This document shows positions 1 through 22,900 of a stretch of 26,444 nt of DNA, piece by piece; the first letter of the stretch is position 1; every line of letters begins with the position of its first letter. Under the pieces are notes generated by a model. It was not told the origin of the DNA, made no database searches, and worked only from the letters and a program-made list of their open reading frames with translations. Source of the DNA: a virus (taxonomy: Duplodnaviria; Caudoviricetes); IMG/VR virus record IMGVR_UViG_3300010220_000006, positions 1 to 26,444 of that record. One strand, 5' to 3'. The translations under genes and the position numbers were made by a program.

Positions 1-3
1 AGC

Positions 4-59
4 TTCTAACTTGTCGTTCAAGCCGACGCCTACGGCGCGGCTTAATTCAGGTGTTGGGC
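4..59 (+). repeat. attC site 1
   Basis: TTCTAAC-TTGTC-GTTCAAGC-CGACGCC-TAC-GGCGCG-GCTTAAT-TCAGGT-GTTGGGC. Extra C and A on the top strand correspond to the canonical extrahelical G and T on the bottom strand. Resembles the aadA-type attC as I recall it. Confidence 0.92.
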
Positions 60-343
60 CGCAGGGATGGGCAATCATGGTTATCGCACGCCCGGAGATA
101 ATGGTCGCGGCACGCCGAGCGATCGCAGTCCGGCATGTCGTTCGCCATCCGCGTGTTTTCCAGCCGATCAAGCACGCCAAAATAATTCCGGTTCCTCAAC
201 TCAGCTTCTCCGTAGCGCTCCAGCAGTTCCCAATCGCCGTCGGTTGCGAGCGGCTTGTAAATCCCGGCTGGTATTCGCCGCGCCAATGCGCCGCCTTGCT
301 GTGCGCGCTTGATTTCATCCCATGTGTATCCAAAGATAGTCAT
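47..343 (-). CDS. Hypothetical protein (cassette 1), 98 aa, Cys/His-rich C-terminus
   Basis: ORF track 47..382 starts at a TTG inside attC2. ATG at 343 has a GGAGA Shine-Dalgarno 7 nt upstream and is preferred. Stop TGA lies inside attC1. Confidence 0.7.
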   Translation of the reverse strand: MTIFGYTWDEIKRAQQGGALARRIPAGIYKPLATDGDWELLERYGEAELRNRNYFGVLDRLENTRMANDMPDCDRSACRDHYLRACDNHDCPSLRPNT

Positions 344-364
344 CTGCAAATCTCCGGGCCAGCG

Positions 365-422
365 GCCCAACAATTCATTCAAGCCGACGCCGTTCCGGCG
401 CGGCTTAATTCAGGCGTTGGCC
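365..422 (+). repeat. attC site 2
   Basis: GCCCAAC-AATTC-ATTCAAGC-CGACGCCG-TTC-CGGCGCG-GCTTAAT-TCAGGC-GTTGGCC; textbook R''/L''/L'/R' boxes with both extrahelical bases. Confidence 0.95.
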
Positions 423-1219
423 GTCTCAAACAGCCCTTGCGCAGGGCATCGCGGGGAAAGCCAAAGGCACTCCACGCGGTCCCGCGCTCCATCGGCGTGA
501 GCGTGACGTTCCACGCACCGCCAGTCCTTGTAGAGCGCGTCGTACAGCGCGCTCCGGTAGCCGCTCAACACCACCGGCCCGCGCAGCTTGTGCAACGTCT
601 CGGCCAGCGCCTCATGGTCGGCGTCCGTCATTTCGTGGCGGTAGTCGCCGCCCTTGTCCCTCGTGGCCGCAACGTAGGGCGGGTCAACGTAGTGCACCGT
701 TTCTTCCCCGTCGTGCGCCGACATCACGGCCGCAGCTTCCCGGTTCTCGATCACTACACCCCGCAGGCGCTCTATCACGTCGCCAAACGCACCGGGGTAG
801 TTCCTCCAGTCGTGCGCGGGCGACGTGCCGCTGCGGTTGCTGTTCGCCCGAAAGCCGGTAGCCTTGTTGTGGGCGTTCGAGCCAAATCCCATAAAGGCCC
901 GTGCAACGGTGCGCCGCGCCTGCTCCAGCGGATCCGTGGTTTCGTGGTAGCTATCGAAAAACTCGTCCCGCGCAAACGGTGTCAGTTCCAGCGCCCTCCG
1001 CAGCTCGTCGCCGCGATCCCGCGCCACGCGAAACAGATTCACCACCTCACCGTCAAGGTCGTTGTACACCTCGCAGTAGCTGCGGGGTTTCTTCAACAGC
1101 ACGCTTGCCGCGCCGCCGAACGGCTCGACATAAACGCGGTGCCGGGGAAGGTGCGAAATAATCCAGTCCGCCAGCTTCCACTTGCCGCCGTGCCATCTGA
1201 GTATCGGTCGTTTGCACAT
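410..1219 (-). CDS. dam: DNA adenine methyltransferase, Dam/D12 family (cassette 2)
   Basis: LRWHGGKWKLA N-terminus, SAM-binding YVEPFGGAASV, EVYNDLD, catalytic YVDPPY. Stop inside attC2. Target sequence cannot be read from the protein. Confidence 0.92.
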   Translation of the reverse strand: MCKRPILRWHGGKWKLADWIISHLPRHRVYVEPFGGAASVLLKKPRSYCEVYNDLDGEVVNLFRVARDRGDELRRALELTPFARDEFFDSYHETTDPLEQARRTVARAFMGFGSNAHNKATGFRANSNRSGTSPAHDWRNYPGAFGDVIERLRGVVIENREAAAVMSAHDGEETVHYVDPPYVAATRDKGGDYRHEMTDADHEALAETLHKLRGPVVLSGYRSALYDALYKDWRCVERHAHADGARDRVECLWLSPRCPAQGLFETANA

Positions 1220-1232
1220 AGTCTCAGTCGCC

Positions 1233-1295
1233 GGCCAACCCGGCGCTCAAGCGGGACCGTCCGCAAGCGGCCGGCCCCTTAGCTCTGCGTTAGAG
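1233..1295 (+). repeat. attC site 3
   Basis: GGCCAAC-CCGGC-GCTCAAG-CGGGACCGTCCGC-AA-GCGGCCGGCCC-CTTAGC-TCTGC-GTTAGAG. Confidence 0.92.
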
Positions 1296-1966
1296 GGCTT
1301 CTTACCGCCACGCTCCAGCACCAGAAAATAGCTGTGGAAAATCCGCGCATGTTTCTGTGTACCTGCTCTGTTCGGTGAAGGTAGCCTGTGCTTTGCTGGC
1401 AGCACAAACAAATCCATCAGCCTGAATCCTTCAATCTCTGCCCAAAAAATCACATTGGCATGTGTGCAGTGCATCTTGTGGTTGTGGATAATGTCTTGGC
1501 ACTTGAACACCATCACCCCGCCCGGCTTCAAAACCCGATAGGCTTCGCTTATCGTGTGGCGGTAGTGTTCTTCCAGTTCATCGTAGCGCCAATATCCGGC
1601 AAACCGCTTCGCCATAATCATCGAGCCATTGCCCTCGCGTCCAGCGCGAACGTAGGTCAAAAACGGCGGGTCAAAAACCACGCTTCCTAGTGTCTGTGAC
1701 GCAAGCGGAAGCATGGTGCTGCAAGCCTGCTCCACCCCATCGAGTTGCGGGTCAATATCAAACTTGTGCTTTGGCTGCGGCAGGTTATGCCAAAACTTCC
1801 CGTTGCCATAGGTCATGTCGCAGTCAAACCCGTCAGGGCAGTGCAGCTTCATAATTCCGCGCAAAATCTCGTCCTGCTCAAAATACACAGAGCGCACCAC
1901 TTCGGCTTTCTCTTTTGTGGCGCTGGCTTCCGCTGGCTCCGTCACTGCTAAACACTGGTAGTCCAT
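1247..1966 (-). CDS. Putative amino (N6A/N4C) DNA methyltransferase, phage type (cassette 3)
   Basis: Motif I-like DMTYGNGKFW, catalytic-like VVFDPPF, EAYRVLKPGGVMVFKCQD; SD AAGGA upstream. The C-terminal 14 aa are translated from attC3. Confidence 0.8.
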   Translation of the reverse strand: MDYQCLAVTEPAEASATKEKAEVVRSVYFEQDEILRGIMKLHCPDGFDCDMTYGNGKFWHNLPQPKHKFDIDPQLDGVEQACSTMLPLASQTLGSVVFDPPFLTYVRAGREGNGSMIMAKRFAGYWRYDELEEHYRHTISEAYRVLKPGGVMVFKCQDIIHNHKMHCTHANVIFWAEIEGFRLMDLFVLPAKHRLPSPNRAGTQKHARIFHSYFLVLERGGKKPSNAELRGRPLADGPA

Positions 1967-1987
1967 AGTTTTCCTTTAGTTCCCGCC

Positions 1988-2051
1988 CTCTAACATTGCG
2001 TTCAAGGCCCGACCGCGCTAAAGCGCGTCGGCCTTAACTTCACCGTTGGCA
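1988..2051 (+). repeat. attC site 4
   Basis: CTCTAAC-ATTGC-GTTCAAG-GCCCGACCGCGCT-AA-AGCGCGTCGGC-CTTAAC-TTCACC-GTTGGCA. Confidence 0.9.
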
Positions 2052-2782
2052 GGCAAAAGCATGTCGCCCTGCACCGCCGTATCGCCAGCGCCGACTTTTG
2101 CGTCCTCGAACAGCCTGCCCTGCCGCTGCGCGTCCTCTATGCGGCGGCGGGCGATGTCGAAATACTTGGGTTCGCGCTCGATGCCGATGAACTCGCGGCC
2201 AAGGTTCGCGCAGGCCACGCCGGTAGTGCCGCTGCCCATGAAGGGGTCGAGGACCGCACCACCTGATCTCACGCTGGCGAGAACTTGGCGCTCCATCAGC
2301 CAAACCGGCTTTGGCGTCGGGTGATCTTCTTTCTCTGCTGTCGGCCCTCGCCACACTGGCGACTTGCAGAACTCGGCGAAATGGGCGCCCGCCCGCTTCC
2401 CGTACACGCAAGCCTCAATGGCCGACAGCCAAATATGCTGGCCGTTCATTGGGCTGGGGTTGGACTTCTCCCAAATGCACAGCCGGGTCGAATATCCTGC
2501 TGCGACCATTCCGGCGCGAAGTTGGCTAACCTGCTCGATGCCGCACCAGACATAGACGGACTCACCAAGCAGCAGAACCTTCAAGACTTCGGACAACTCG
2601 CAGGTTTCAATGTCGGCCGCCCCCTTATCGAGATTCCGAAGGCCGCCCGATGCTCGATTTACTTCGCCGTAGGGAATGTCCGTAATCACCGCGTCCACCT
2701 TCGGCAGCGTCGGCAGTATCTCGCGGCAGTCGCCCAGGTAAAGCGTGCAATTCCCGATTGTCACTTTCTCAGCCATCATCAC
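2018..2782 (-). CDS. N6A/N4C DNA methyltransferase, beta class (cassette 4)
   Basis: LYLGDC, DAVITDIPY (DPPY variant), HPTPKPV, VLDPFMGSGTTG, FIGIERE. True start may be ATG 2776 or 2779 (GGAG upstream). Stop TAG inside attC4. Confidence 0.9.
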   Translation of the reverse strand: MMMAEKVTIGNCTLYLGDCREILPTLPKVDAVITDIPYGEVNRASGGLRNLDKGAADIETCELSEVLKVLLLGESVYVWCGIEQVSQLRAGMVAAGYSTRLCIWEKSNPSPMNGQHIWLSAIEACVYGKRAGAHFAEFCKSPVWRGPTAEKEDHPTPKPVWLMERQVLASVRSGGAVLDPFMGSGTTGVACANLGREFIGIEREPKYFDIARRRIEDAQRQGRLFEDAKVGAGDTAVQGDMLLPANGEVKADAL

Positions 2783-2801
2783 TCCGTAGTTACGTTTTGC
2801 C

Positions 2802-2864
2802 TGCCAACACGTCGGTCAAGCGGACGGCGGAAAAGCACCGCCGCCGCTTACCTTGGCGTTAGTC
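2802..2864 (+). repeat. attC site 5
   Basis: TGCCAAC-ACGTC-GGTCAAG-CGGACGGCGG-AAAAGCA-CCGCCGCCG-CTTACC-TTGGC-GTTAGTC. Confidence 0.92.
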
Positions 2865-3026
2865 GTCATCCAGTTCATCGTTTTCCAGCAGCGCCATCCG
2901 CTCGTCAACAATGTCCCGAATCCGATCAACCGCCATCCGCGTCCGTTCATTGTCGATCCCGTAATATCGCAAAAGCTGGCGGCATTCCTCAAACAAGTCC
3001 TGGCACATCTCGCGCTCTGTTGCCAC
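2859..3026 (-). CDS. Small acidic hypothetical protein (cassette 5), about 55 aa
   Basis: ORF track 2859..3044. GTG at 3026 is preceded by GAGGAG (6 nt spacing) located in attC6. Stop TAA overlaps the GTTAG core of attC5. Confidence 0.6.
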   Translation of the reverse strand: MATEREMCQDLFEECRQLLRYYGIDNERTRMAVDRIRDIVDERMALLENDELDDD

Positions 3027-3086
3027 GTCTAACTCCTCATTCAAGCGGGACGCGCTAAAGCGCGCCCCTTAATTCATGCGTTAGGC
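3027..3086 (+). repeat. attC site 6
   Basis: GTCTAAC-TCCTC-ATTCAAG-CGGGACGCGCT-AA-AGCGCGCCC-CTTAAT-TCATGC-GTTAGGC. Confidence 0.94.
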
Positions 3087-3346
3087 CACACGGGGCGACC
3101 GCCGCGCACTTCACCGGCCCACTGATCTGGCGTCGTGATGTCGTCTCCGTAGTCGAGGATGTTGGGCTCTGTGTCGCGCTCACCGATCAAGAGCTTCGTG
3201 CGCTCTGCCTCGTAGGCCACTCTGTTCCAGTATTCTCCGCGATCCATCTCACCGGCTTTCCAACCGCCTGCACTTGTTTTTCTTGTAAATAGACCAGTAT
3301 GTTGATCGTAATCAAGTCTTTGTTTTAATTCAGACTGAGTAATCAT
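3074..3346 (-). CDS. Chimeric ORF: HNH homing-endonuclease-like N-terminus fused to an unrelated C-terminus
   Basis: MITQSELKQRLDYDQHTGLFTRK resembles phage HNH endonuclease N-termini, but no HNH motif follows. AT-rich 5' part, GC-rich 3' part; SD AGGAG; stop in attC6. Confidence 0.6.
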   Translation of the reverse strand: MITQSELKQRLDYDQHTGLFTRKTSAGGWKAGEMDRGEYWNRVAYEAERTKLLIGERDTEPNILDYGDDITTPDQWAGEVRGGRPVWPNA

Positions 3347-3358
3347 CTTGTCTCCTTT

Positions 3359-3634
3359 TTACAAATAATCCCAACTATGCGCCTTCGCCCATAACATCGG
3401 CTCGTCATTCAGCCGGTGCCATTTCTCGCCGCGCTCATGCTTGCCGTCAATGTCGTAGTACGCTTCGTCAATCCGTGTGTATACATGCCCCATGATCGGG
3501 TCATACCAGGCTTCGGCCAGCGGGAAAAGTTCTTTCAGCACACGGTATAGCTGGAAGCATCCGCCGTTGCTGAAACGATTCTCTGCGTTGACGATGCCGA
3601 TTCTTACGGCTGCGATTATCTCTATGGGGGTCAT
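3359..3634 (-). CDS. Phage hypothetical protein, 91 aa
   Basis: ATGA overlap with the upstream methylase; NGGC...GHVY...YYDIDG pattern. Confidence 0.75.
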   Translation of the reverse strand: MTPIEIIAAVRIGIVNAENRFSNGGCFQLYRVLKELFPLAEAWYDPIMGHVYTRIDEAYYDIDGKHERGEKWHRLNDEPMLWAKAHSWDYL

Positions 3635-5058
3635 GCCGCTATCCTCTCGGATTGCACCTCACGAACCATCTGGATGCGTTGGCCTATCCAGCGCATAACC
3701 GGAACGGCCATCGAATTACCTAACGCCTTATACATTGCGCTGTCGCTTGCTCCTGGCACTTTAGATAGGTAATCGTCCGGGAATCCTTGAAGTCTGGCGC
3801 ATTCAGTTGGAGTAAGGCGGCGGACCTGCATGCTTTGCATCAAATATGTTTGTTGTTTCATTCCTGGCTCTGCGGCCAGCGCACCAACTACATCCATAGT
3901 CCTCACCTCGTCACGCTGATTTTGCGCAAACGCTACAGCAGGGCTTTTAGACTTATCCAGCGTAGGGCATACCGTGTCAGGATTCATGCTTTGTGTGGTG
4001 CTGGCTTGATGGTGGAAGGCGACTGCATGCTGATCTGTTTTTGTCAGGCAATGCGATACATCGTGCATAGGCTCGACAGCATTGCCGCCGTTCTCTGGTG
4101 ATCGACCAATCCAGTTGCCTGGTATGCCGTAGCTAATCAAGTCAGTCGCGTCTTTGTAGTCGCGTTGTTTCAATGATCCTGCGAGATCGTCATCAACGTA
4201 CTCACCGAAAGCAACCATGCGATTGGTGGTGATACAAAAATCTAACTCGTTGGCGTTTCCTGCTGGCCTTGTTGTTCCGCCACCATTTGCAGCGAGTGTT
4301 CCAGCAACGACAGGAACAGGCACTATCAACTCATCCTTGCTATCTCCGCTTCTGGCTCCATGCCCTTTGCCACCGTTTGCAGCGCCTGCTCTAATTGTTG
4401 GGGCAACTTCTTGCCCCTTTTCTCGGCTCGGCGCAGGATGCCCCTGCAAGCTGTGGCGCTCAAAAAGTACCGGCAGTCTATCAATCCAGTTTCCAAAATC
4501 TGCGAGAGCGAACATACGTCTGCGTCTTTGTGGAACTCCAAAGTATTGCGCGTCCAAAGTGCGCCATTCGAGAACCCCTGTTTCGCTGGCAGCAACTCCG
4601 CTGTTTTGCCATCCGTTTTTTGGTACAGCAAATTCGGTGTCAAGGATTTCTCCAACCATTGAAGCAAAATCGCGTCCATTGTTTGATGAATAGATGCCTG
4701 GCACATTTTCAAGGAGCAACCATCTTGCATTTGTCCATCTTGCGATTTGCAAGGCTGTGTAAAAAAGTCCAGACCTAGTTGCGCTTCCATCTGCATTTTT
4801 TAACCCTTTTCTTAATCCAGCCACACTCAAATCTTGGCAAGGAAATCCGCCTACAACCAAATCAATATGCCCCAATGATTTAATCTGCTCTTGCGTGATT
4901 TTTGTGATGTCGCCAAGATTTGGAACATCAGGATAGTGGTGTGCCAATACCCTGCAAGGAAACGGATCGATCTCAGCAACGGCAGCGCATTCCCAACCCA
5001 AAGGCAACCACGCAACACTTGCTGCCTCGATTCCACTAAATAAAGATAAGAACTTCAT
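3631..5058 (-). CDS. dcm: DNA (cytosine-5) methyltransferase
   Basis: Motifs I (LSLFSGIE), IV (GGFPCQDLS), VI (ENVPG), VIII (PQRRRR), IX (RRLTPTECARLQGFP), X (YKALGNSMAV); long variable region. Confidence 0.95.
   Translation of the reverse strand: MKFLSLFSGIEAASVAWLPLGWECAAVAEIDPFPCRVLAHHYPDVPNLGDITKITQEQIKSLGHIDLVVGGFPCQDLSVAGLRKGLKNADGSATRSGLFYTALQIARWTNARWLLLENVPGIYSSNNGRDFASMVGEILDTEFAVPKNGWQNSGVAASETGVLEWRTLDAQYFGVPQRRRRMFALADFGNWIDRLPVLFERHSLQGHPAPSREKGQEVAPTIRAGAANGGKGHGARSGDSKDELIVPVPVVAGTLAANGGGTTRPAGNANELDFCITTNRMVAFGEYVDDDLAGSLKQRDYKDATDLISYGIPGNWIGRSPENGGNAVEPMHDVSHCLTKTDQHAVAFHHQASTTQSMNPDTVCPTLDKSKSPAVAFAQNQRDEVRTMDVVGALAAEPGMKQQTYLMQSMQVRRLTPTECARLQGFPDDYLSKVPGASDSAMYKALGNSMAVPVMRWIGQRIQMVREVQSERIAA
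4326..4796 (-). CDS. Overprinted ORF inside dcm, similar to the M.EcoHK31I beta polypeptide
   Basis: 156-aa alternative-frame ORF on the same strand, AAGGG upstream of the ATG. SLKM...WTRNTLE...CSLSQILET...FLS...GILRRAEKRGKKLP resembles the beta subunit as I recall it. Confidence 0.6.
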   Translation of the reverse strand: MQMEAQLGLDFFTQPCKSQDGQMQDGCSLKMCQASIHQTMDAILLQWLEKSLTPNLLYQKTDGKTAELLPAKQGFSNGALWTRNTLEFHKDADVCSLSQILETGLIDCRYFLSATACRGILRRAEKRGKKLPQQLEQALQTVAKGMEPEAEIARMS

Positions 5059-5534
5059 TTGCCAGCCTCGTGTTCAATTCGATGACAATTAGGGCAAATA
5101 ACCTCACCATTAGAAATGGTGTTAAGTCCACCTTTGCATCTAGGTAAAATATGATGAACATCGCACGTTGCTTTATTCCATCCACAACGTGAGCATGAAT
5201 TGCCTTTTGCTTTTCTAACTGCCTCAGCCCATGACTTTCGGTTTTTATAATTTTTATTGTCGGAATGAATTTGATATGTTTTTCCTGAATTCCAAGATGA
5301 TTTTGGCTTTCTTGAAACTTCTGATCTCAAACATCCACAAGATTGAGTTCCTTTTTTATTGCCTGAACGAAAATTATTGCTTTGAACTAGGCATTTATTT
5401 CCGCATTCGCACAAGTACTCCCATAAAACATGTCCATCAGACGACCTTCCAGATTCCTTAACTACAGTGAGGCGACCATATTTAATGCCAGTTCTATTCA
5501 CGGCGTTTCCACGCTTTATGACTTCGTTAATCAT
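5055..5534 (-). CDS. HNH homing endonuclease
   Basis: N-terminal YGRLTV...W.YLCECG...SCGCL module and C-terminal CSRC...DVHHILP...GGLN...N...CPNCH; AT-rich; ATGA overlaps at both ends. Confidence 0.88.
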   Translation of the reverse strand: MINEVIKRGNAVNRTGIKYGRLTVVKESGRSSDGHVLWEYLCECGNKCLVQSNNFRSGNKKGTQSCGCLRSEVSRKPKSSWNSGKTYQIHSDNKNYKNRKSWAEAVRKAKGNSCSRCGWNKATCDVHHILPRCKGGLNTISNGEVICPNCHRIEHEAGK

Positions 5535-5758
5535 GCTTTCACTCTCCATGTCGCCCATTTCTTTCCCGCCTTCATCGCAATCTTTCGCGATCGGGTTCCG
5601 CCCATACTTGCGTTTTGTTTCAGAGGCAGCTTTACACCTTTCTTCTCAAGTTTGTTCAGTGTGTAAGAGCTGATTCCCAAGTCCTTCATCATTTGATTCC
5701 TGCTGTTGTACGGATTCGCCTGCATGTAGGATTCGATTCTCTGGATCAGGTCGTTCAT
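5531..5758 (-). CDS. Small basic HTH-like protein
   Basis: SD GAGGTG; SRNQMMKDLGISSYTLNKL is HTH-like. Confidence 0.65.
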   Translation of the reverse strand: MNDLIQRIESYMQANPYNSRNQMMKDLGISSYTLNKLEKKGVKLPLKQNASMGGTRSRKIAMKAGKKWATWRVKA

Positions 5759-5933
5759 TTTTCACCTCTGCTATCAATTCCAGCATGGCGGCTTCCCCAT
5801 GCTCTGCCTTGTACGCTTTCAGCCATTGCCTTGCTGCCGGTTTGTATGCGGCTCGAAGCCACTTGACCTGGCAGCAGCGGTTGTTCATGTTGAACGTCCA
5901 CTTCAGCCCCTTTGCACAGAATTCGCATGTCAT
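5646..5933 (-). CDS. Hypothetical protein (CxxC...CC)
   Basis: ATGA-coupled to the P-like gene; 3' end overlaps the next gene by 113 nt. Confidence 0.55.
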   Translation of the reverse strand: MTCEFCAKGLKWTFNMNNRCCQVKWLRAAYKPAARQWLKAYKAEHGEAAMLELIAEVKNERPDPENRILHAGESVQQQESNDEGLGNQLLHTEQT

Positions 5934-6418
5934 GCGGCCTCGATGGCTTGTTTTGCAAACCGAGCAGCAATGTCAGAAACAGTCCTGTCACCGTCCTTGA
6001 CGCGCTGGATAATGGCGTGCGCCCAGTCTTTCATGCCGCGCTCCTGCTTCTTCTGCAACTTCTCGGCCTCGGCTTGCAAACGCTCGTGGTTACGCTCGAT
6101 TTCCTCGGCGGTGAAGTGCCTTGGCAGCGCCTTGGTTATTTCACCTGGTTTCATGGCGGCACAAATCCGCTTGAACTCAGGCAGCGTTGGCGGGAACTGC
6201 AGGTTGTCAGCGCAGTGATTGATTGCCTTGCCAATCTCCATCAGCGAGAACTTCGCAAGTCCTGCAGCCCATTCGTCCTTGACCGAATCCATCGGAATAT
6301 CCGCCCACATATCCAGCCAGTGCTTGCCGTACAGACTAGCCATTCGAAGAAAGAGCCGGTCTATCGCCTGTGGCGGAATCACTTGATACGTCGATGATTC
6401 TTGGCTTGTGGTTTCCAT
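5930..6418 (-). CDS. Replication protein P-like (helicase loader)
   Basis: Directly downstream of the initiator; LFLRMASLYG..W and FPPTLPEF motifs typical of lambda P-like proteins. Confidence 0.7.
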   Translation of the reverse strand: METTSQESSTYQVIPPQAIDRLFLRMASLYGKHWLDMWADIPMDSVKDEWAAGLAKFSLMEIGKAINHCADNLQFPPTLPEFKRICAAMKPGEITKALPRHFTAEEIERNHERLQAEAEKLQKKQERGMKDWAHAIIQRVKDGDRTVSDIAARFAKQAIEAA

Positions 6419-7286
6419 CGGTTAAATCTCCAAACATGGCTTTTGCGGTTGCGGTTCGTTTGTCGTGTACGGTTTGATTTTTTGGCGGCGCCGTCTTGTT
6501 CTCGTATCTGCCCTCGATGATCTTCACGAAGTTTTCAGACTTCGTAATCCACTCAAGGTCTGCCTGAAAGCTTGAAGTCTTGCCAGTAAGGAAATCTGAT
6601 TGCGCAACGTAAGCAAAAAGCCTTTCCCAATACTCAAGGTTTTGTCGTTTTGGATCTTCTCTCCAGCGTGATCGAAGTTGATTCGCCCTTTTCTCCGTCC
6701 AAGACTTAACCCTAGTCAGCATAGGCAAATGCTTGTGATAGAGATTGATGATTTGTTGATGAGGGCAAGCGTCACCGACTTGTTCGGGGACAATAGGTTT
6801 TTTACTGTTACTGTTACTGTTACTGTTACTGTTACTGTTACTGGTTAAGGAAGGGTTGTCTAACGGTTCGCCAACTGTTCCAGTTTTCGTGTAATCTAAT
6901 CCTAAAAAGTAAGCGTTGAGCCGCATGTACTCTTGTTTCCAGCTACATTCATCTGGTATTGACTCAGCGATTCTCTTGGCGCTTTTGAGTTGATTTGGGT
7001 TCTCAGGCTTGTTCCAATTGAAGTACTTGCAAATCCATACCCATTTGGTGGTTTCGCAACGTTTAGCGAAGCCCTTATCTAACAGTTCTTTAAGGGTTGA
7101 TTTAACCCTTTCTAAAGCCCATTGAAGGTCGTCGCAAACATAACCATCTGGCAGTCTAAAAACGCCTGATATAGTTCCGTGAGGGCACGTTAGTAAATAC
7201 ATAGCCATTGCCCTGGCATCCTCGCTCATGGTGCGAGTTGTTTGGCTTGTCCAGAATGATGTATAGACTTTCCCGTAATCACGCAT
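6336..7286 (-). CDS. Phage replication initiator (O-like)
   Basis: MRDYGKV..SFW N-terminus, low-complexity linker, C-terminal ADLEWI...NFVKIIEGRY; canonical position after cro/cII. Confidence 0.85.
   Translation of the reverse strand: MRDYGKVYTSFWTSQTTRTMSEDARAMAMYLLTCPHGTISGVFRLPDGYVCDDLQWALERVKSTLKELLDKGFAKRCETTKWVWICKYFNWNKPENPNQLKSAKRIAESIPDECSWKQEYMRLNAYFLGLDYTKTGTVGEPLDNPSLTSNSNSNSNSNSNSKKPIVPEQVGDACPHQQIINLYHKHLPMLTRVKSWTEKRANQLRSRWREDPKRQNLEYWERLFAYVAQSDFLTGKTSSFQADLEWITKSENFVKIIEGRYENKTAPPKNQTVHDKRTATAKAMFGDLTDGNHKPRIIDVSSDSATGDRPALSSNG
6802..6843. repeat. (TTACTG)x7 perfect tandem repeat in the initiator linker
   Basis: 42 bp read directly from the sequence; encodes an SN dipeptide run. 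Confidence 0.95.
6851..7110. promoter_or_regulatory. Putative replication origin iterons
   Basis: Heptamers at 11-12 bp period: AAGGGTT 6851, AACGGTT 6862, AACTGTT 6873; second cluster AACGTTT 7058, AGCCCTT 7070, AACAGTT 7081, AAGGGTT 7092, AACCCTT 7104. Confidence 0.5.
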
Positions 7287-7288
7287 GT

Positions 7289-7408
7289 TTATTCCAAACT
7301 TTCTCTCAGGTAGGAGTTGTGTATCTGGCTTGCAATTACATCTAAATCAAATCCTTTTTTCTGCCAGCGCGGATCTTTTAGTTTTTCTGAATATGTTTTA
7401 TTAGCCAT
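7289..7408 (-). pseudogene. 39-aa ORF, probable internally deleted HNH endonuclease
   Basis: MANKTYSEKLKDPRWQKKGFDLDVIASQIHNSYLRESLE with SD AAAGG; YSEKLKDPRWQKK is a typical HNH-protein leader. Not in the ORF track. Confidence 0.55.
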
Positions 7409-7421
7409 CACAAGCCTTTCA

Positions 7422-7736
7422 TCACGCCGCCACCTTCTGCTCTCTGAACTCAAACAGGTTGGAGTAACGTGGATGCCGAAGTGCGAACAGCCTTGCTAGA
7501 TATGGCACAAAGTTCCCGTTGATCTTGTATTCACCCTTCAACTCACCAATAGCGGTGTCGTGACGGATGACCTCAACGATCGTCCTGGCCGAGTAGTGCT
7601 CACGCTTCGATGCGACCTTTAATGCTCGACGCTCGAACTCTTCCCAGATGTGGAAGTTCTCCATCAGCCATTCAGGGAAGTCGTCACGGAACATGTCTTT
7701 GTTGGAAAGAATTGTGTTGAGGATAATGAGCTTCAT
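7422..7736 (-). CDS. Phage hypothetical protein
   Basis: 104 aa, strong SD AAGGAGG, in operon order. Confidence 0.8.
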   Translation of the reverse strand: MKLIILNTILSNKDMFRDDFPEWLMENFHIWEEFERRALKVASKREHYSARTIVEVIRHDTAIGELKGEYKINGNFVPYLARLFALRHPRYSNLFEFREQKVAA

Positions 7737-7766
7737 ACGCCCTCCTTGAATCGACCTTTTCTAGCC

Positions 7767-8003
7767 CTATTCCTGCACTTCAGGTCTAGCACCGGTTGCC
7801 TTCATCCTTAAGACGTGAAATTGCCCATAAAGGTGAGCTGTGATGACATCTCTTAGATACTCGGATGATGACTGCCCGGAAAGCTGCGCAAGTGCGACAA
7901 ACTTCTCTTTCACATCCTCTGGCACCACTGTCTTAAGTTCCTCGGTGCATTTGCCCAGAGGATGCGATGTGCCAGACCGTGAGAAAACTGAATCTGTACC
8001 CAT
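7767..8003 (-). CDS. Ribbon-helix-helix-like regulator in the cII position
   Basis: ELKTVVPEDVKEKFVALAQLSGQSSSEYLRDVI fits an RHH pattern; SD GGAG. Confidence 0.7.
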   Translation of the reverse strand: MGTDSVFSRSGTSHPLGKCTEELKTVVPEDVKEKFVALAQLSGQSSSEYLRDVITAHLYGQFHVLRMKATGARPEVQE

Positions 8004-8122
8004 AAAGTTTCTCCAATTAGAGTTATTTGACGACTTCCCTTTTTAATGAACCCGATGGCAGATCCATTAAAAAGCGCCCTGCTAACAAGGCGAAATGCAC
8101 CAATTAGGGGGCAATTGGTGTC

Positions 8123-8353
8123 CTATGCGGCGTTGCTTAATTCAGGCCAGATATCCATCCAATCATCTGGCCTAAGTTCCTTCCGGGTGACAGCGCCGTC
8201 AGTGATCTTCTCGATGGCCACGCACTGCATGATCGGCACAGGCCGGATTCCTGATATCCATTGGTTGACGGCAGGCGTAGTGACTTTGAGCGATCGTGCG
8301 AGCGCTGCCTGCCCACCCATAAGGGCGCATGCTTTTTCAATTGCAAAACTCAT
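8123..8353 (-). CDS. cro: Cro-like repressor (YdaS family HTH)
   Basis: GGQAALARSLKVTTPAVNQW...IEKITDGAVTRKELRPD; divergent from cI; ATG 8353 follows the PR -10 box. Confidence 0.9.
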   Translation of the reverse strand: MSFAIEKACALMGGQAALARSLKVTTPAVNQWISGIRPVPIMQCVAIEKITDGAVTRKELRPDDWMDIWPELSNAA

Positions 8354-8360
8354 GCTGGTA

Positions 8361-8389
8361 AATTTAGCACGGCTAAAGGAACGAATCAA
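8361..8389 (-). promoter_or_regulatory. PR promoter
   Basis: TTGATT (8389-8384) - 17 bp - TAAATT (8366-8361); cro ATG 7 nt further on. Confidence 0.75.
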
Positions 8390-8425
8390 GCCATGCTAAA
8401 TAATTTTGCTATTAGCATCGCTTTA
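8363..8425. promoter_or_regulatory. OR operators (three 15-bp sites)
   Basis: TTTAGCacgGCTAAA 8363-8377, TCAAGCcatGCTAAA 8386-8400, ATTAGCatcGCTTTA 8411-8425; the same motif recurs at OL. Confidence 0.85.
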
Positions 8426-9150
8426 TGAAGAGTGACGACAGTAAAAGACTAGAGGATCTGTTCCGACGGGTGCGGATGACTAAGGCGGAATTCGCTCGCA
8501 CATATAAGATTCCGGGCGGCGCTTCTATGGTTAGTCAGCATCTGAGTGGCAATAGACCGATCAGTATGGACGCTGCGATTGCTTATGCACGCGGCTTCGG
8601 GTGCAGTATTGCTGATATAAGTCCAAGGTTAGCGGCTGAAGCAAAGGCGCTAGCCCAAATGGTGAACGACGACCTGATCACCAATCCAACCGCTTCGCAT
8701 GAGCACGAGGAAGACGACAGCGACAGCATCTCTATCGACCTTATGAATGCATATGGATCGATGGGTGGCGGCGTGGATATTGAATCTGAAGACTTGGCAA
8801 TCGAGAGATTAAGGATAAACAGAGCATGGGCTGCGGAGAACCTGAAGCCTATAACCTCACTCAATAATCTGTATTTCATTCACGCTCTTGGCGACTCAAT
8901 GACGCCAACTCTTGATCACGGCGACATCGTCCTGGTTGACGTCGGCATTAAGAATGCTATGGTTGATGGCATCTATGTATTACGCGCATGCCAGCGCCTA
9001 TTCATTAAGCGGGTTCGCACTCGTCTAGACGGTGCGCATGAGATCAGTAGTGACAACCCGAACGTGAAGACGGTTGATATCTTAAACGGTGACTATGATG
9101 TCGAGATCGTGGGGAAGGTGGTGTGGGTATGGAATGGAAAGAAGGTCTAA
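8425..9150 (+). CDS. cI: CI repressor (HTH + S24 autopeptidase)
   Basis: N-terminal HTH; GSMGGG cleavage-site region, GDSMTPTL (Ser), LFIKR (Lys), IVGKVVW. Confidence 0.93.
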   Translation: MKSDDSKRLEDLFRRVRMTKAEFARTYKIPGGASMVSQHLSGNRPISMDAAIAYARGFGCSIADISPRLAAEAKALAQMVNDDLITNPTASHEHEEDDSDSISIDLMNAYGSMGGGVDIESEDLAIERLRINRAWAAENLKPITSLNNLYFIHALGDSMTPTLDHGDIVLVDVGIKNAMVDGIYVLRACQRLFIKRVRTRLDGAHEISSDNPNVKTVDILNGDYDVEIVGKVVWVWNGKKV

Positions 9151-10240: not shown

Positions 10241-10253
10241 ATTGCTAAATAAA

Positions 10254-10295
10254 TTTAGCAATGCTATTGACATATAAATTTAGCCCTGCTAAAGT
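10254..10295 (+). promoter_or_regulatory. PL promoter with OL operators
   Basis: TTGACA (10267-10272) - 17 bp - TAAAGT (10290-10295); operators TTTAGCaatGCTATT 10254-10268 and TTTAGCcctGCTAAA 10279-10293. Confidence 0.88.
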
Positions 10296-15827: not shown

Positions 15828-16799
15828 ATGGTGGCATCTATCCAGAAGCATGGTGATGGATGGCGTGCGCTCGTTCGTAGAAAGGGTATCACTAAAACAA
15901 GAAAATTCCCAACGAAAGCGCAGGCTGTGGCATGGGCGGCAAAGGAAGAGACCGAGATCCTTGAATCAATGTCTGGGTCTATACCGAAAAAGACGTTCGG
16001 TGAGTTACTTGACCGATACGCAGATACCGTCTCGGTGAAGAAAGCCGGGGAGCGGTGGGAGCGCGTTCGCATCAATTTAATCAAACAGGATAAGATCGCC
16101 AACGTCATGCTGGCTGATCTTAACCAATCAGACTTTGCCGCATGGCGCGACCGGCGATTGAAAGAAGTTAGCGCAGCGAGCGTAAGACGCGAATGGAACC
16201 TTCTGTCTAACGCATGCACGATTGCGCTATATGAGTGGAAATGGCTGCGCGAGCATCCAATGAAAGGCGTGTCCAAGCCTGCGCCTCCGCCGCCGCGTGA
16301 CAGGTTGGTGAGCCAGGAAGAGATCGAAGCGATACAGTTCGCACTTGGCTATGTTGGCGGTCAGGCAGAAACCAAAAGTCATCGCGTTGCGCTCGCGTTT
16401 GAGTTTGCATGCGAAACAGCGATGCGCGCTCAGGAGATATGCAATCTTCGACTTGATGACATCAATGGTCAGACAGCTACCATACGCAAGTCAAAAACTC
16501 GCGCTGGCGTCCGCGTCGCTCCGTTGACGCAGCGAGCCGTCGAGATATTGAAATTGCTGCCAGATGAAAACCTGTTCGACCTGACAACGGCGTCGCTTGA
16601 AGCGATGTTCAGGAAGGCCAAAGCAAAAGCCATGATCGATGACTTGCATTTCCACGATTCACGGCACGAAGGGATAACCAGACTGTCAAAGAAACTGAAC
16701 GTGCTAGAGTTGGCAAGAGCGGTCGGTCATCAGGATCTGAGGCAATTGCTCATCTACTACAACGAGAGCGCTGAGGATATAGCCAAGAAGTTGCGTTGA
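15828..16799 (+). CDS. int: Phage integrase (tyrosine recombinase)
   Basis: Catalytic R (AMRAQE), K (KSKT), HxxR (FHDSRH), H (VGH), Y (IYYN); no IntI-specific insertion evident. Confidence 0.95.
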   Translation: MVASIQKHGDGWRALVRRKGITKTRKFPTKAQAVAWAAKEETEILESMSGSIPKKTFGELLDRYADTVSVKKAGERWERVRINLIKQDKIANVMLADLNQSDFAAWRDRRLKEVSAASVRREWNLLSNACTIALYEWKWLREHPMKGVSKPAPPPPRDRLVSQEEIEAIQFALGYVGGQAETKSHRVALAFEFACETAMRAQEICNLRLDDINGQTATIRKSKTRAGVRVAPLTQRAVEILKLLPDENLFDLTTASLEAMFRKAKAKAMIDDLHFHDSRHEGITRLSKKLNVLELARAVGHQDLRQLLIYYNESAEDIAKKLR

Positions 16800-16854: not shown

Positions 16855-16959
16855 ATGGGCAAACTCTTTATGGTCTTCTGGTGGGTGGTGCTTGGCGCGT
16901 CCGCACTTTATGCGGTCATACGCGCCATTTGGTATTTCACCTCTCGTTTAATTTTCTGA
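16855..16959 (+). CDS. Possible 34-aa membrane peptide
   Basis: MGKLFMVFWWVVLGASALYAVIRAIWYFTSRLIF; TAAGAT -10-like box 6 nt before the ATG; converges on the giant ORF. Confidence 0.35.
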   Translation: MGKLFMVFWWVVLGASALYAVIRAIWYFTSRLIF

Positions 16960-19900
16960 CCTCTTCGTTGAATGAAGCCATCAACTCTGTGATCTCGCTC
17001 TCTATCTGAGCGATCTCAGCCCGTGATGCCCCTGCAGCCTGCATCATTCTCTTGTGTTTGCGCATCTTCTGGACTGCGCCGTACACGCGATCGGCATGCT
17101 GGAACAACTCTGCCTCTGGATTGTCCTTCAGGTACTTCTCGATATCCTCACCAGCCTGTAGCCTGCCCATGATTTCACGTTGATGCGTGTTCATCCTGGT
17201 GATGTTGTTGTAGAACTTGCCGCCCTGAGCGCCGCTGCTTCTTGCGTCACCATAGAACCGGCCAACGATAGGAATCTTGTATGTCGGCAACGCCTCACCC
17301 GTGACAAGTGCCGTCGCTGTCTGCTCCGTCTTCAGATATTCACGACCGACGCCGCCACTGAGTTGGCCAATCAGGTAATCGATCTGATCAGGTGTCGGGC
17401 TAATCACGCCAGGAGCGAACTCGCTTCCGCCACTGAGCTTGTTCAATCCATATGACAAGCCACGAGCGAATGCGCTTGCGGTGTCCTTCGCTCTCGTGTG
17501 CCCTGGAGACGGGTCAAGTGAACTAAAGTCTTTTCTCGCGATAGGCTGGCCAGTCCAATCCTTATTCTCTGTCAGCGCAGCGACCGGATCCAATGCAGTG
17601 GGTGTCAACGTCTGCATGGACAAACCGGAGTAACCGATCGGGTTGAACATATCCATGTACACCTCAAGCAGGTGCGCGATTCGTTCCGGTGTGTCCTCGA
17701 ATCCATCCAAAGCCCACTCGGTCAGTATGCGACCTGTCGCAGGGATAGCGTTATAACCTAGCGGCATTGGAATAGAGATGTACTTCTTTTCCACCCCGAA
17801 GAAGTCCAGCGGAATGATAAGGTTTCGATCCCGAACAAACTCTGGCGGCTCGTCATCATCATATCCGGCCGCAGCCAGCGCAAGCGCCTGCATGGAGCCT
17901 AGCAGCAATCCACCATAGACGATCGCGCGACCTGCCGGCGTCATCCTGTAGTTGCCGTCCGCATCACGCTTGAGGATAGTCTCGGCGATTCTCGCAGTGC
18001 CTTGTATAGATGCGTTGTAAAAGGCGTACAGTGCGCCTATCTCTCTTCCCCACGCACCCTTGCGGTTGAAGTTGACGGTGAGGTTTTTGGCGATGCTGGC
18101 AGCCCTTTGTTTGCTAAGCCCAAGTTCAAGTCCTTTCTTGTACGCTGCCAATCGAACAGCATTCTCAAGTGTCTCGTTGTAATCGGACAGCCAGTTGAAT
18201 AGCGCCTTGCCTGGCTTGCTCACAAGGAACTGCTGAGGCGCGGCAAGCAGTCCGCCAGCGGATATCACCTTGCCCCACGTCTTTTTCTGCCACCATTCAG
18301 GATCGAGTGCTCGCTGCATATTCTCGGAGCGCACCTTCGCATTCCTATACAAATCACGATAGCCAGTCTTGGCGCCCTGACTCTCGAACTCTTCCCACAG
18401 TTCAGACCACTCGCCACTTACCTTCTCGCCAGACCGGCGCGCACGAACCTCCTGATATATTCCCTTCAATGCAGAGCCGGTGTAGGCAAGCACCTCACGC
18501 TGCATACCCTTCAGCGGAGTGGACTCAAGATTGAGCACTGCGCCCTGAACGTCACGGATGATGTTGATTATGCCAAAGACAGGGTTGTACTGAGTGTTGA
18601 TGCTGGCGAAGTAACGGGTGATAGGCGCGAACCATCCAGCCAATGTAGACAGGTCATCGACATCAAGATTCTTGATAGACGCAGCCATGCGCATTGCGCG
18701 TTCGTTGAACTCGTTGAATACAACCGCATGCTCCACGATCTCGCCGCGCTTGTTCACGACCTTGGCGACGACGACGTTCGGACGATTCTTGTAGTTTGGA
18801 TCCGGACGCTCCTCAACCTGATTCGTGCGCTCGTTCACATAGCGGATAGTCGGGATCTTGTTCACTTGCCAGAATTCAGAGAGCGGGTTGAGTGTCGCCA
18901 TCCCGACCAGTGCGGTTGCGACACGATTCTTTTCTCCACGGATGATGGCGCGCTCGCGTTGCTGCGCGATATTCGCAAGGATGTCCACGACACCGAGACG
19001 GGAACCCATCGCCCGCTTACTCTCTTTTCCGCGAACAGAATAGCCCTGCCCCGTTCCAGCAAACCCTGTGTCCATCTCTTCCCGCATCAATGGCACATAG
19101 TTCTTATACGCCTTGTTCCATGTAGCAATGGTGCTGGCGGATTCCAAGCCATAGTCAACCAGAGTCTGGCGGGTCTTGTGTGTGATCGCATCTACGCGTT
19201 TCGCGAGCGCCTCGTAATGTTTACGTTTCTGCGGGTCGAGACTGCTCAGGTAATCACGCGCTTCTTGCGTGGTTATGCCGGAGCCGCCGTCAGGCATATC
19301 AGGATTGATCTTGGCGATCTGTTCATTGCGCTCTTCTGCATGACGTGCCCACAGATAATGCTCAAAGTCCTGCATTGTGACGCCACGCATGCGCATTTCT
19401 TCGATAAGAGGTTCTAGTTCATTCTTGATGAACTCCTGCGTGCGCTTGGCGCTGCGACCGTGGAACAGCTCTTCCTGTAGATAGGCATCCCATCTGTCAT
19501 CGATCTCAGCGCCAGTTTCATTTATCGCCTGGGTGACTCGTTTCAGGTCGATATTCTTGTCCTGAAGGGCGTAGATGACATCATCGATCTTGGATGTTTC
19601 CGGACTATCCCAGGATGGCATGAGCCGTTGCTGACGGCTGAAACGGATGTCAGGATTGGCAGAGTCGAAGGTGCCTTGGTTGCCAGTAGCGGACTTGATC
19701 TGCTCGGGGCGGAAGGCGACGTAGACGGTGGCGGGGTACTCAGATACAGGGGATGCGTGGTCGATCACGTTCCGAACGATCAACCCGTCGCGGCCCTGCT
19801 CGAACGCCTGCTTCACGGCGTCTGGCATGACTTGCATGAACCGCTGCCCGCCTCCGTCCACCACCAGCGGGTCTTGAATCGACATGTATAGCGGCATGAC

Positions 19901-22900
19901 GTTCGCCCCTACACCGAGATTCCAGCCTTCTTTCCTGCCGGCGGCGCGGTAAGCCTGGAACAACCTTTCGTATTCCTCGCCGTAGTCGCCTGGGTTTTCG
20001 TTCTTATACCGCTGCCACGCCCTGCCGGCGTCGGCGATGTTGCGGTTACGCTTGTTGAGTGCGTAGTCAGACGCCACGCGAGCATCGTCCGTTGCAAAGA
20101 TCGCCGGCCTGTCATACGCAACACCATCGGCGCCAGAAAACGCAAGGTCGAAGGCTGACAAGTCTCCGGTGGTCCCGTGGTACACCACCAGCGGCTTGCC
20201 ATCGGCATCGACCACTTTGGAGTCTCCGAACCACTTCCGGAAGGCCGGAGTTTCTGTCACGCCACTCGGCCCCCGCGAGAACGAAGCCCCGTCAAGCGCC
20301 GCCTTGCCGCCGCCGCGCATCACCCACTGTCGCGCCGGGATGATGAACTGCGCGATGATGTCGTTGTCCGACATCCTCAGATTCACGCCAATCCCACGCA
20401 GCCACGACCGGATCGCCGCGATCGCGCGCTTCACGAACCCGATCTGCGGATTGGTCTGTGCCATTTCCGCCAGCACCTCTTCTGCAGCGATCAGTCTGTC
20501 GCGCTCGTTCTTGATATCCAATCCATAGGATTTCGCCTTGGCCAGCACATCCTTGCGACGCGCAATACTGACTTGGTTCAGGATAGGCTTGAGTTGATCA
20601 CCGAACACACCGCGTAATCCGTAGTGTCCAAGCGTTTCATGTAGAACCACGCGTACAACATCTCGCTCACTGTTCAGAGCGCTTGCAACGACATACACCT
20701 TGCCAGCATCGAAGAAACCTTCCGGCTCACCTTCCGCGCCCTGCGACATTTGGCGCTCGTTCTCCTCGCGCACCGCCTTGCGGATACGGCTGTCGCTCAT
20801 ATTGTCCACGACGATGATTTCAGGCGCATTCTTCCAGCCTGCGCGGATACGGTTTACAGTGCGTTCAACATCAGCAACGGCCATGCCTGAGCCGGAGAAT
20901 TGGCGACCGAACAATGGCAAGCCTGACATGATTTTCTCGCGCATGTCGGGGGTGATGGTGAAGCCGGGTTGCTTACCACCATTATTCCTTCTATCAACAT
21001 CGGCTTGTGCCTGTTCTCTTGTTGCGTATTGCCCGTACTCTGAATCAGGATCACTTTTTTCGACTACATAGAACGTGCCATTTTCCTCAATAACAGAATA
21101 ATTATTTCCAGATTTTTCTATTCCAATACTCTCAACCTTCCCGCCGCCCACCTTTTTCAACACATCATTGACCACTTGCGGCACGATTTGGTCATAGAAG
21201 GTGCGCATACCTTCGCCGCCTACTTTAAGGTCAACTCCTGAAAGACTGCCGCGCTCTGTCATTCGCATAATCTTTTCTGCGATTTCCTTACCAACAACTT
21301 CGTCAAGCGGCTTTCCTTCGCCTTGACCATTGGTAACAATGCCTTCATTGTTAATCGTTGATGGGAAGCTGCCGCCAGAGTGATTAACCGTTATCTCTCT
21401 GTATGTTTTGTAAGGTCTGACCTCTATGCTATCAACCTGCTTACTCAAGTCATACAAATCCGCAGCCTGCTGGCCGTTGATGAATGAAACCTTGTCGAAG
21501 CCGTTCTCAGCCGCATAGCGCATCATGCGTTTAACCGCTAGAGCCACCCACGCTTTTGTGTCGCCGTATGGTGTTTTTACGCCAGTTTTTCCTTTGCGCA
21601 AGTCTTGTGACCAGTCACTTTGCACCTCTTGGATGAACAGCACGCGGTTCCCATCAGCATCAGTACGCTCGTCAAAACGGACGTGGGCGAGGATGTTTGG
21701 CTGGTCGAAGTGGGATGAACGGAAATTAGCTCTCTCATCAGCACGCGGGGTTGTTTTGCGTAACTCTAGGAGTTCCTTAAATTCAGACTTGCTTATCTCG
21801 CCGCGATTGTTTTTCCCCTCAAGCTCTTGTCTCCTAGCTTCCTGTGCTGAGGGAATAGGGACTACTTCCGGCAACGTCAGCAACAGCTCTTTGTAGTTCT
21901 CGCCGCCTGGTACTGTGTATTGGGCGTATTTTGGCTTGCCGGCACTTTCGCGTCGATCTTCCAGTTCATCAGGATCAATGCCGTTCTCGATAGCATCGCG
22001 CTCAGTGTCGCCTTCGCTTACCACTTCGCCTTCATCATCCAGCAAGTAATACTCACCATTTGGCTGACGCTCAACTTGCCAACCATCAGGCAATGCAGGC
22101 AAGTTATCTTCTGACAACATAACATCAGTAACCTGCACGCCATTACCATCCAGATACGCTTGAATATCAGCCTTGCTTACCTTGCCGGTTTGCAGGTCAA
22201 GCCAGTCAGTAATGCCAGTCCATTGGATTTCATCTTTCTTGACGCCGAGTTTGCCGGCATTACCTTGAATCCATAACTTCCATTGCGCAGCAGGCGCAGA
22301 TTCAAACTTGGCAGAATCAATGCCGCGCGCAAGCTGGCTGTAGAAGATGGGGGCGGATGTACCGGAACGGCTGAACAGCGCAACACCAGTGTCGGTTTCT
22401 TTGGTTTCAATCGTACTGAAAAGATTATCGAAAGCATCAGCGACCGGCTGAATCTCACCTTCTATCAGGTAAGGATAGCGGTCTGCATCGCGCGGGAAGT
22501 CTTCTGGCGAAACCACGTTTGCCAGATAGTCGTTGTCATAACCATTCAAGCGCATCTTGTGGATTACGTAGTTCTCAAATGAACGTGCAGCACGCTCGAT
22601 AATGCGTGACCAATAGCCGTCGGAAGCAGATCCATCAATCGCTCTGGCTCGGCCAGTCATTGGCGACTCATTCAAGGCTTTGACCAAATCAGCAAATGCT
22701 TCTGCAACAACAGGCCGCACGCCCTCGATCAATGTCCAGTCGTCGGGATTGAACTTCCCAACGAACCTTTGGCCTCTACGCCCTTTTTCACCTGCCGCCA
22801 TCAGCTTGTAATCCGCTTCTGGTAGGCGTGTATTGCCGTCCTTGTAAACGTAGTAGTTTTCAGGGGCGTATGTGATATATCCAAGGTGCCGACCAGCAAG

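Follow-up and report, generated by a model that had tools for sequence, protein, structure and literature searches.

How did a row of genes at one end of a phage contig come to be separated by integron recombination sites, and how are those genes arranged? The question is raised by IMG/VR record IMGVR_UViG_3300010220_000006 (Caudoviricetes). The window, as we use the term, is the whole 26.4-kb viral contig (26,444 nucleotides). It contains an array of six attC sites, five whole cassettes and one truncated cassette. Cassettes 2-4 carry DNA methyltransferases and cassettes 1 and 5 carry small proteins that belong to no known family. A first-pass annotation had proposed that the two ends of each cassette are complementary to each other, as expected of circular cassette intermediates. 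We found that this is real but ordinary. It had not remarked that the cassette genes are inverted relative to their attC sites, which is an unusual feature. We found that the array is a well-supported member of an inverted variant of integron cassette arrays.

The attC sites and the paired ends of cassettes

A structure-based scan of the window found exactly six attC sites, all on the + strand and all within positions 4-3086 (Table 1). The same scan of 20 Markov-shuffled windows gave 5 hits in total. In all six sites R'' ends in AAC, R' starts with GTT, and the spacers to L'' and L' are 5 and 5-6 nt. All six also have an unpaired C at position 4 of L'' on the top strand; that is, an unpaired G on the bottom strand. 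The bottom strands fold into long hairpins. The polarity is canonical, and we take the + strand as the attC top strand because attC2, by eye, nearly matches the aadA7 attC printed in the available part of the supplement of Qi et al. 2023 (PMC9892861). The R''-L''...L'-R' layout, the unpaired bottom-strand G in L'', the G|TT crossover and the end pairing are those of integron cassettes in general; pairing reaches 9-11 nt in most cassettes, according to the accessible part of Bouvier et al. 2009 (PMC2727003).

The sequence starting at each GTT pairs with R'' of the next attC, which is the other end of the same cassette. The five pairings were as the first-pass annotation had placed them (10/10, 8/8, 10/10, 14/14 and 8/9 matches for cassettes 1-5). 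Beyond the invariant GTT/AAC (positions 4-10), there were 32 of 35 matches to the cassette's own end and 18 of 35 to the end adjoining each attC. When the five R'' ends were permuted over the six GTT ends, one of 720 assignments was as high by matches (p = 1/720) and two of 720 were as high by run length. We also circularised each cassette in silico and folded the bottom strand. The circular site was more stable than the integrated one in all five cases (for cassettes 1-5: -28.2 vs -19.7, -24.3 vs -21.6, -26.6 vs -20.0, -33.5 vs -19.7, and -15.2 vs -13.0 kcal/mol), and the cassette's own end was the best-folding of the six possible ends in four of five rows (the attC of cassette 2 did 0.4 better with the end of cassette 1). 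Cassette 5 had the weakest pairing, with a longest unbroken run of only 5.

This pairing is not peculiar to the window. Among 193 cassette intervals from 55 viral loci (window included, five duplicate loci excluded), the own end beat the neighbour's end 157 to 20, with 16 ties. The proposal that paired ends are a signature of circular cassettes holds, as a property long known for all cassettes (PMC2727003, same part). Because it is known for integron cassettes in general the pairing is unsurprising in itself, and alone it adds nothing to existing knowledge.

GC-rich hairpins between genes could also be repetitive extragenic palindromic (REP)-like elements or terminators that punctuate an operon, with ends that pair by chance. 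The first-pass annotation had argued against this, and its argument was borne out. The fixed spacing of R'', L'', L' and R' and the unpaired C in six of six sites do not fit such elements, nor does the permutation result. None of nine terminator-like sites in positions 1-8500 coincided with an attC, and the genes read through the attC sites. The breaks in homology at G|TT, described below, refute REP-like elements and terminators, and we give them a negligible probability.

Cassette genes are inverted relative to attC

In the usual, although not obligatory, layout of a cassette, the gene is on the attC top strand and is followed by attC at its 3' end. None of the five cassette genes is arranged in this way. 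All five are on the - strand, antisense to the attC top strand. Since the top strand is +, each attC is at the 5' end of its gene. The stop codons of four of the five genes are in the neighbour's attC, and the fifth gene stops at the TAA within the GTTA of its own cassette. The tails of these four proteins would thus depend on the neighbouring cassette. Among 39 inverted genes (34 with family matches plus the five in the window), 15 stops were in the neighbour's site, 9 were at the TAA of GTTA, and 15 were internal.

We found the same orientation in other viruses. One attC type of the window was present in 127 viral loci (~140 estimated) and 147 bacterial loci (~1100 estimated), and we retrieved 80 loci of each kind with their flanks. 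In the viral arrays, we excluded cassettes with an end run of less than 7 (124 of 188 were kept) and compared open reading frames (ORFs) of at least 30 aa. Matches to PHROG families were found for 35 of 120 antisense ORFs and for 1 of 119 sense ORFs (Fisher p = 7e-11). In contrast, the bias was reversed in bacterial arrays that share this attC type: among 70 cassettes drawn at random from 126, Pfam matches were found for 1 of 60 antisense and 11 of 69 sense ORFs. ORF calls in 161 bacterial cassettes gave 107 forward, 10 inverted and 44 unclear. Near viral intI genes, family matches were again mostly antisense (24 of 69 vs 2 of 65 sense; L441-443, L455, L458 and L473 left out). Base skew agreed with inversion in 132 of 134 viral cassettes, and of 86 intervals near viral intI, 76 were pyrimidine-rich on the attC strand, 10 were neutral and none was purine-rich. 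Judging from these matches and skews, inversion appears to be the rule across the dozens of phages sampled.

Cassettes have moved independently

The first-pass annotation had also argued that each gene arrived as an independent cassette. This is supported. We found cassettes 1 and 5 and the cassette-4 family with different neighbours, and cassettes 2 and 3 on their own.

We found relatives of cassette 1 (90-99% identity) in 26 loci, 24 of them from metagenomes and 2 viral. Their homology begins at window base 53 and ends at ~418, which are the two GTT, and in none of these loci does it continue into cassette 2. The left junction was visible in 15 of the 26 loci. By our own reading there were 11 different flanks, none of which was the attC1 of the window. 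In four loci (L550, L551, L558, L572) the sequence left of G|TT was unlike attC; in L558 and L572 it resembles an attI motif followed by phage genes, with no intI. In two others (L552, L561) the cassette borders on G|AT.

Cassette 5 (87% protein identity) is present in L079, in a different array with different neighbours. Members of the cassette-4 family have the same ends and other neighbours in eight other phage loci, with a compensatory end change in one (L163). Cassette 3 is alone in L001, also with a compensatory end change, and there its attC ends at G|AT. Thus, the single or outermost cassettes that finish at G|AT are those of L001, L552 and L561. IntI inserts cassettes at genomic 5'-GWT-3', according to the available part of a preprint (10.1101/2022.09.11.507474).

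Public contigs contained cassette 2 at ~99% identity in three studies, covering 414-1264, 416-1279 and 426-1279 among the matches listed, and cassette 3 at ~95% in two. Among the matches listed, no piece bridges two window cassettes. For the cassette 3 gene, 77 of 78 viral relatives have no flanking attC, and only L001 is a cassette. For the cassette 2 gene, none of the best 80 of 145 viral relatives has a flanking attC. It seems that the genes of cassettes 2 and 3 are ordinary phage genes that are sometimes packaged as cassettes. Lone attC hits at other relatives of these two genes were at chance level or within genes and were rejected.

These results bear on whether the phage took up the whole array en bloc from a chromosomal integron of a bacterium and has kept it unchanged since. 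Types like attC2 and attC3 are frequent among bacterial genomes, and such events in Vibrio prophages are described in the part of PMC9892861 available. But most bacterial arrays of this attC type are forward and their cargo is different, the cargo of the window matches phage families, and no two adjoining window cassettes were found together elsewhere among the matches listed. The last point largely refutes capture en bloc, which we consider very improbable.

Integron integrases in phages with inverted arrays

Full integron integrases (IntI) were encoded in 3 of 38 array-bearing viral records (476-479 bits, cut-off 265). With one full phage IntI as the query we found relatives in 71 viral loci. 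Without exception, the attC sites upstream of viral intI were on the strand that diverges from it. In 50 of 52 loci intI was preceded by an attI-like motif that finishes in G|TT, and the first cassette after attI paired with the next attC over at least 7 nt in 22 of 31. Two phages, G007 and G020, are 99.7% identical up to the G|TT of attI, and then their cassettes differ. G007 also has one extra cassette inserted exactly between two GTT. One IntI-bearing array (L450) includes a member of the cassette-4 family.

In two quick trees, 43 phage-type integrases were on one side of a branch with support of 97 and 99 (eight long-branch rows were excluded from the second tree). The group comprises 42 viral enzymes and one prophage enzyme, and the prophage in question has methyltransferase cassettes in the inverted layout. 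The six catalytic residues are intact in all 43, and one of these enzymes matches VchIntIA over its full length (PDB 2a3v, E 2e-89). This group, with its conserved attI, appears to serve inverted phage arrays. We call it a phage-specific lineage provisionally, because the sampling carries a bias: a group member was the query that retrieved the viral set, and the comparison took in only 27 bacterial enzymes. Two viral records are outside the group, one with a forward array (L477) and one whose IntI groups with bacterial enzymes (L488). No phage in GenBank had an IntI of more than 60% identity to the group.

Three further loci are of interest in their own right. A Thiobacillus denitrificans RG prophage (L544, 10781-15520; G047) has inverted cassettes, intI and a phage integrase in a row, and is a cultured example. 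Virus Rctr41k (L545, 4680-5678) encodes an IntI-like protein of 47% identity annotated as xerD, and the scan found no attC within ~5-6 kb of it. The IntI-bearing phage G007 (L438, 5912-7615) has Avd-like and reverse-transcriptase-like frames that are presumably a diversity-generating retroelement.

Could another recombinase, such as the phage's own integrase, work these sites? It is the sole tyrosine recombinase encoded in the contig. However, it is 12.7 kb from the array and beside an excisionase-like gene, the sites have the canonical form for IntI, and other phages have the same types of site and cassette beside true IntI genes. We find a role for another recombinase hardly credible.

A proposed life history of the array

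Based on these results we infer that cassettes of this array recombined one by one through IntI, are transcribed by a phage operon and serve in anti-restriction methylation. We consider it very probable that the window contains an array of integron cassettes within a temperate phage's early region, that the array combines ordinary attC sites with genes on the opposite strand, and that IntI likely inserted the cassettes singly at G|TT, from circles. Paired ends, loss of homology at G|TT and the differing neighbours of homologues would reflect the insertion. With genes antisense to attC sites of canonical polarity, each attC is at the 5' end of its gene. The genes point towards the attI side, so the integron promoter Pc at attI could not read them. 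They would instead be read from the far end, by the rightward early operon of the phage, which would extend from cro, O and P into the array. IntI may have come from an integron of the host or an IntI-encoding phage, acting in trans, or the phage may encode it in the part of its genome that the contig lacks. The methyltransferases probably shield phage DNA from host restriction, and swapping cassettes would change the set of protected sites.

Several observations weigh against this interpretation, in whole or in part. The 26.4-kb contig has no intI and no attI-like motif, and 35 of the 38 array-bearing viral records have no IntI over the cut-off, including all seven that are at least 90% complete. 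The orientation claim depends on family matches and base skew, and the viral and bacterial tests used different libraries (PHROG vs Pfam). By ORF length alone, of 193 viral cassettes 67 are clearly inverted, 21 look forward and 105 are unclear, and in bacterial cassettes skew marks the strand poorly (of 126, 70 below and 55 above 0.5). The truncated sixth cassette indicates that the array also decays. Lastly, the same cassette has different attC bodies in different phages, for which recombination at G|TT alone is insufficient.

Where attC bodies are exchanged and the cassette end stays constant, RecET may be responsible. It is possible to take this further and suppose that cassettes born in integrons are now shuffled, with no integrase taking part, mainly by phage RecET through homologous recombination among attC sites that resemble one another. 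Genes for RecT and RecE are present in the phage, the contig has no intI, and in the cassette-4 family the gene interiors are only ~47% identical and the ends 78-91% identical in DNA. However, cassette 1 joins at G|TT to flanks that are unlike attC and at G|AT in the loci given above, and homologous recombination needs more than three shared bases. In addition, G007 and G020 diverge exactly at attI. We think it unlikely that RecET is the main agent, and prefer insertion by IntI.

A broader scheme is tentative, and we hold it to be possible and rather doubtful. Temperate betaproteobacterial phages may run an integron economy of their own, in which a phage-specific IntI lineage with its own attI and integrase-less phages share a mirror-image pool of cassettes made from ordinary phage genes. 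Early operons may even generate new cassettes, with attC added at the 5' end of a gene. We raise this because one methyltransferase family is free in 77 of 78 viral loci and is a cassette in the remaining one and here. There are models for the origin of cassettes in which attC is added as the terminator-like 3' end of a copied mRNA. Attachment at the 5' end, if true, would misfit these models. Free and cassette-bound copies of one family, and near-identical phages one cassette apart, are material for this question.

Relation to known integrons

The window array differs from known integron cassettes in that its genes run antisense to the top strand of attC, attC heads the gene rather than following it, and expression would come from a phage operon and not from Pc. 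Phage attC clusters that have no integron integrase (CALINs) are already published. The available part of Qi et al. 2023 (PMC9892861) describes several with DNA methyltransferases and a proposed anti-restriction role, and reports that their attC sites function with IntI1. With six attC sites, lambdoid genes and no IntI in 26.4 kb, the assembled part of our phage is likewise a CALIN in a phage. In contrast, phages TJE1 and PH101 are described there with the typical bacterial layout, and the two attC sites that our scan found beside the TJE1 methyltransferase are forward. The same part describes no uniform inversion and no phage-specific IntI group, and its complete phage integrons are captures of host or class 1 integrons.

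Single attC sites lacking integron integrases (SALINs) and insertion at attG, as presented in the available part of 10.1101/2022.09.11.507474, resemble the outermost or single cassettes that finish at G|TT or G|AT and have no further att site after it (L001, L552, L561). Insertions there had no obvious orientation bias in Escherichia coli, whereas the phage arrays consist of phage genes in long, uniform series. Integrons with an inverted integrase, such as those in Treponema (Cury et al. 2016, PMC4889954, part consulted), also have intI and cassette genes in the same direction. There it is intI that is flipped relative to attC; the phages keep the canonical divergent intI and have flipped cassette genes. 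A term search of the available portion of Fonseca and Vicente 2022 (PMC8876359) gave nothing on inverted cassettes. In the literature searched (most subscription journals and bioRxiv supplements lay outside it) we found neither uniformly inverted phage arrays nor the phage IntI group. Phage attC clusters with methyltransferases are known (PMC9892861, same part).

Integrons are known as something that bacteria use, with expression from a promoter at attI, and this is why inverted arrays would be important. Phages appear to use the same recombination chemistry for rearranging their early genes, those for anti-restriction among them, and to reverse the order of expression.

The phage and its other features

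The window phage is a lambdoid temperate phage, as judged from genes for a CI-like repressor, O- and P-like replication proteins, RecET, a single-stranded DNA-binding protein (SSB), and excisionase-like and integrase proteins. The array is downstream of the replication genes (Table 1). Bacterial carriers of its attC type are mostly betaproteobacteria, which suggests a betaproteobacterial host. The start of the contig cuts the array on the side where intI would be placed. The cassette before it was predicted to begin with GTTAGAAG, and the left end of the window had no exact matches among metagenome contigs. No GenBank phage record spans the array. A promoter scan gave 3 sites, fewer than in shuffled sequence (6.7), and did not locate a promoter.

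Table 1. Coordinates of the attC sites, cassettes, genes and neighbouring features in the window.
Feature	Position	Strand	Remarks
attC1	4..59	+	R'' 4-10, L'' 16-23, L' 40-46, R' 53-59; its cassette is cut by the contig end
attC2	365..422	+	by eye almost the aadA7 attC (see text)
attC3	1233..1295	+	type in ~140 viral and ~1100 bacterial stored stretches (estimates)
attC4	1988..2051	+	structure-based scan
attC5	2802..2864	+	structure-based scan
attC6	3027..3086	+	structure-based scan
Cassette 1	54..416	+	363 bp, G|TT to G; contains attC2 body; limits set by 90-99% homologues
Cassette 1 gene	47..343	-	98 aa, no known family; stop codon in spacer of neighbouring attC1
Cassette 2	417..1289	+	873 bp
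Dam-like (D12 class) adenine DNA methyltransferase	410..1219	-	269 aa; PF02086 1e-24, phrog_56 3e-68; stop codon in attC2 spacer
Cassette 3	1290..2045	+	756 bp
N6/N4-type DNA methyltransferase	1247..1966	-	239 aa; phrog_24333 2e-78, PF01555 at cut-off; frame crosses most of attC3 and stops in L'' box
Cassette 4	2046..2858	+	813 bp; 14-bp complementary ends
N6/N4 DNA methyltransferase	2018..2782	-	254 aa; PF01555 6e-25, phrog_67 2e-61; stop codon within attC4 loop
Cassette 5	2859..3080	+	222 bp
Cassette 5 gene	2859..3026	-	55 aa, unknown family; stop is the TAA of own GTTA end
Hybrid gene	3074..3346	-	HNH-like N-terminus (phrog_99 E 3.5e-4, residues 1-39) joined to the 3' half of a gene with bounding attC sites in L541 and L543
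C5-cytosine DNA methyltransferase	3631..5058	-	just upstream of array; attC on neither side
P-like and O-like replication genes (-), CI-like repressor (+)	5930..9150		PHROG matches; - strand early operon faces array and is probably co-transcribed with it
Phage integrase	15828..16799	+	phrog_1 2e-56; no TIGR02249 match, so not an integron integrase

The protein of cassette 1 had no family in searches of profile libraries and no match in the Atlas. A GAGGAG motif in the spacer of attC6, ahead of the cassette 5 gene (GGAGGG in the L079 homologue), is like a ribosome-binding site and may function as one. The hybrid gene marks the truncated sixth cassette (~3081-3247), with its attC lost. We suspected the R'' of a whole sixth cassette near 3716 and rejected it; this site falls within the C5 methyltransferase gene, and no attC body accompanies it. 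Relatives of that methyltransferase are cassette-borne in IntI phages. L079 also has a 123-bp attC (5163-5285) with a loop that holds the start of the next methyltransferase gene, the N-terminus of which is encoded by an arm of attC.

Elsewhere in the window, positions 8128-8147, near the end of a cro-like gene, match the right half of attC1/attC2 at 18 of 20 bases, and the scan found no left half there. A 6-bp tandem repeat within the O-like replication gene (6802-6843) is perhaps part of an origin region. A 20-bp near-palindrome is present in three copies (8359-8378 and 10250-10294) that flank the repressor region and are likely operators. Lastly, an open frame of more than 3100 aa on the - strand (16937-26444), with LPD5, LPD1, ART-PolyVal and LPD38, encodes a large polyvalent protein in this temperate phage.

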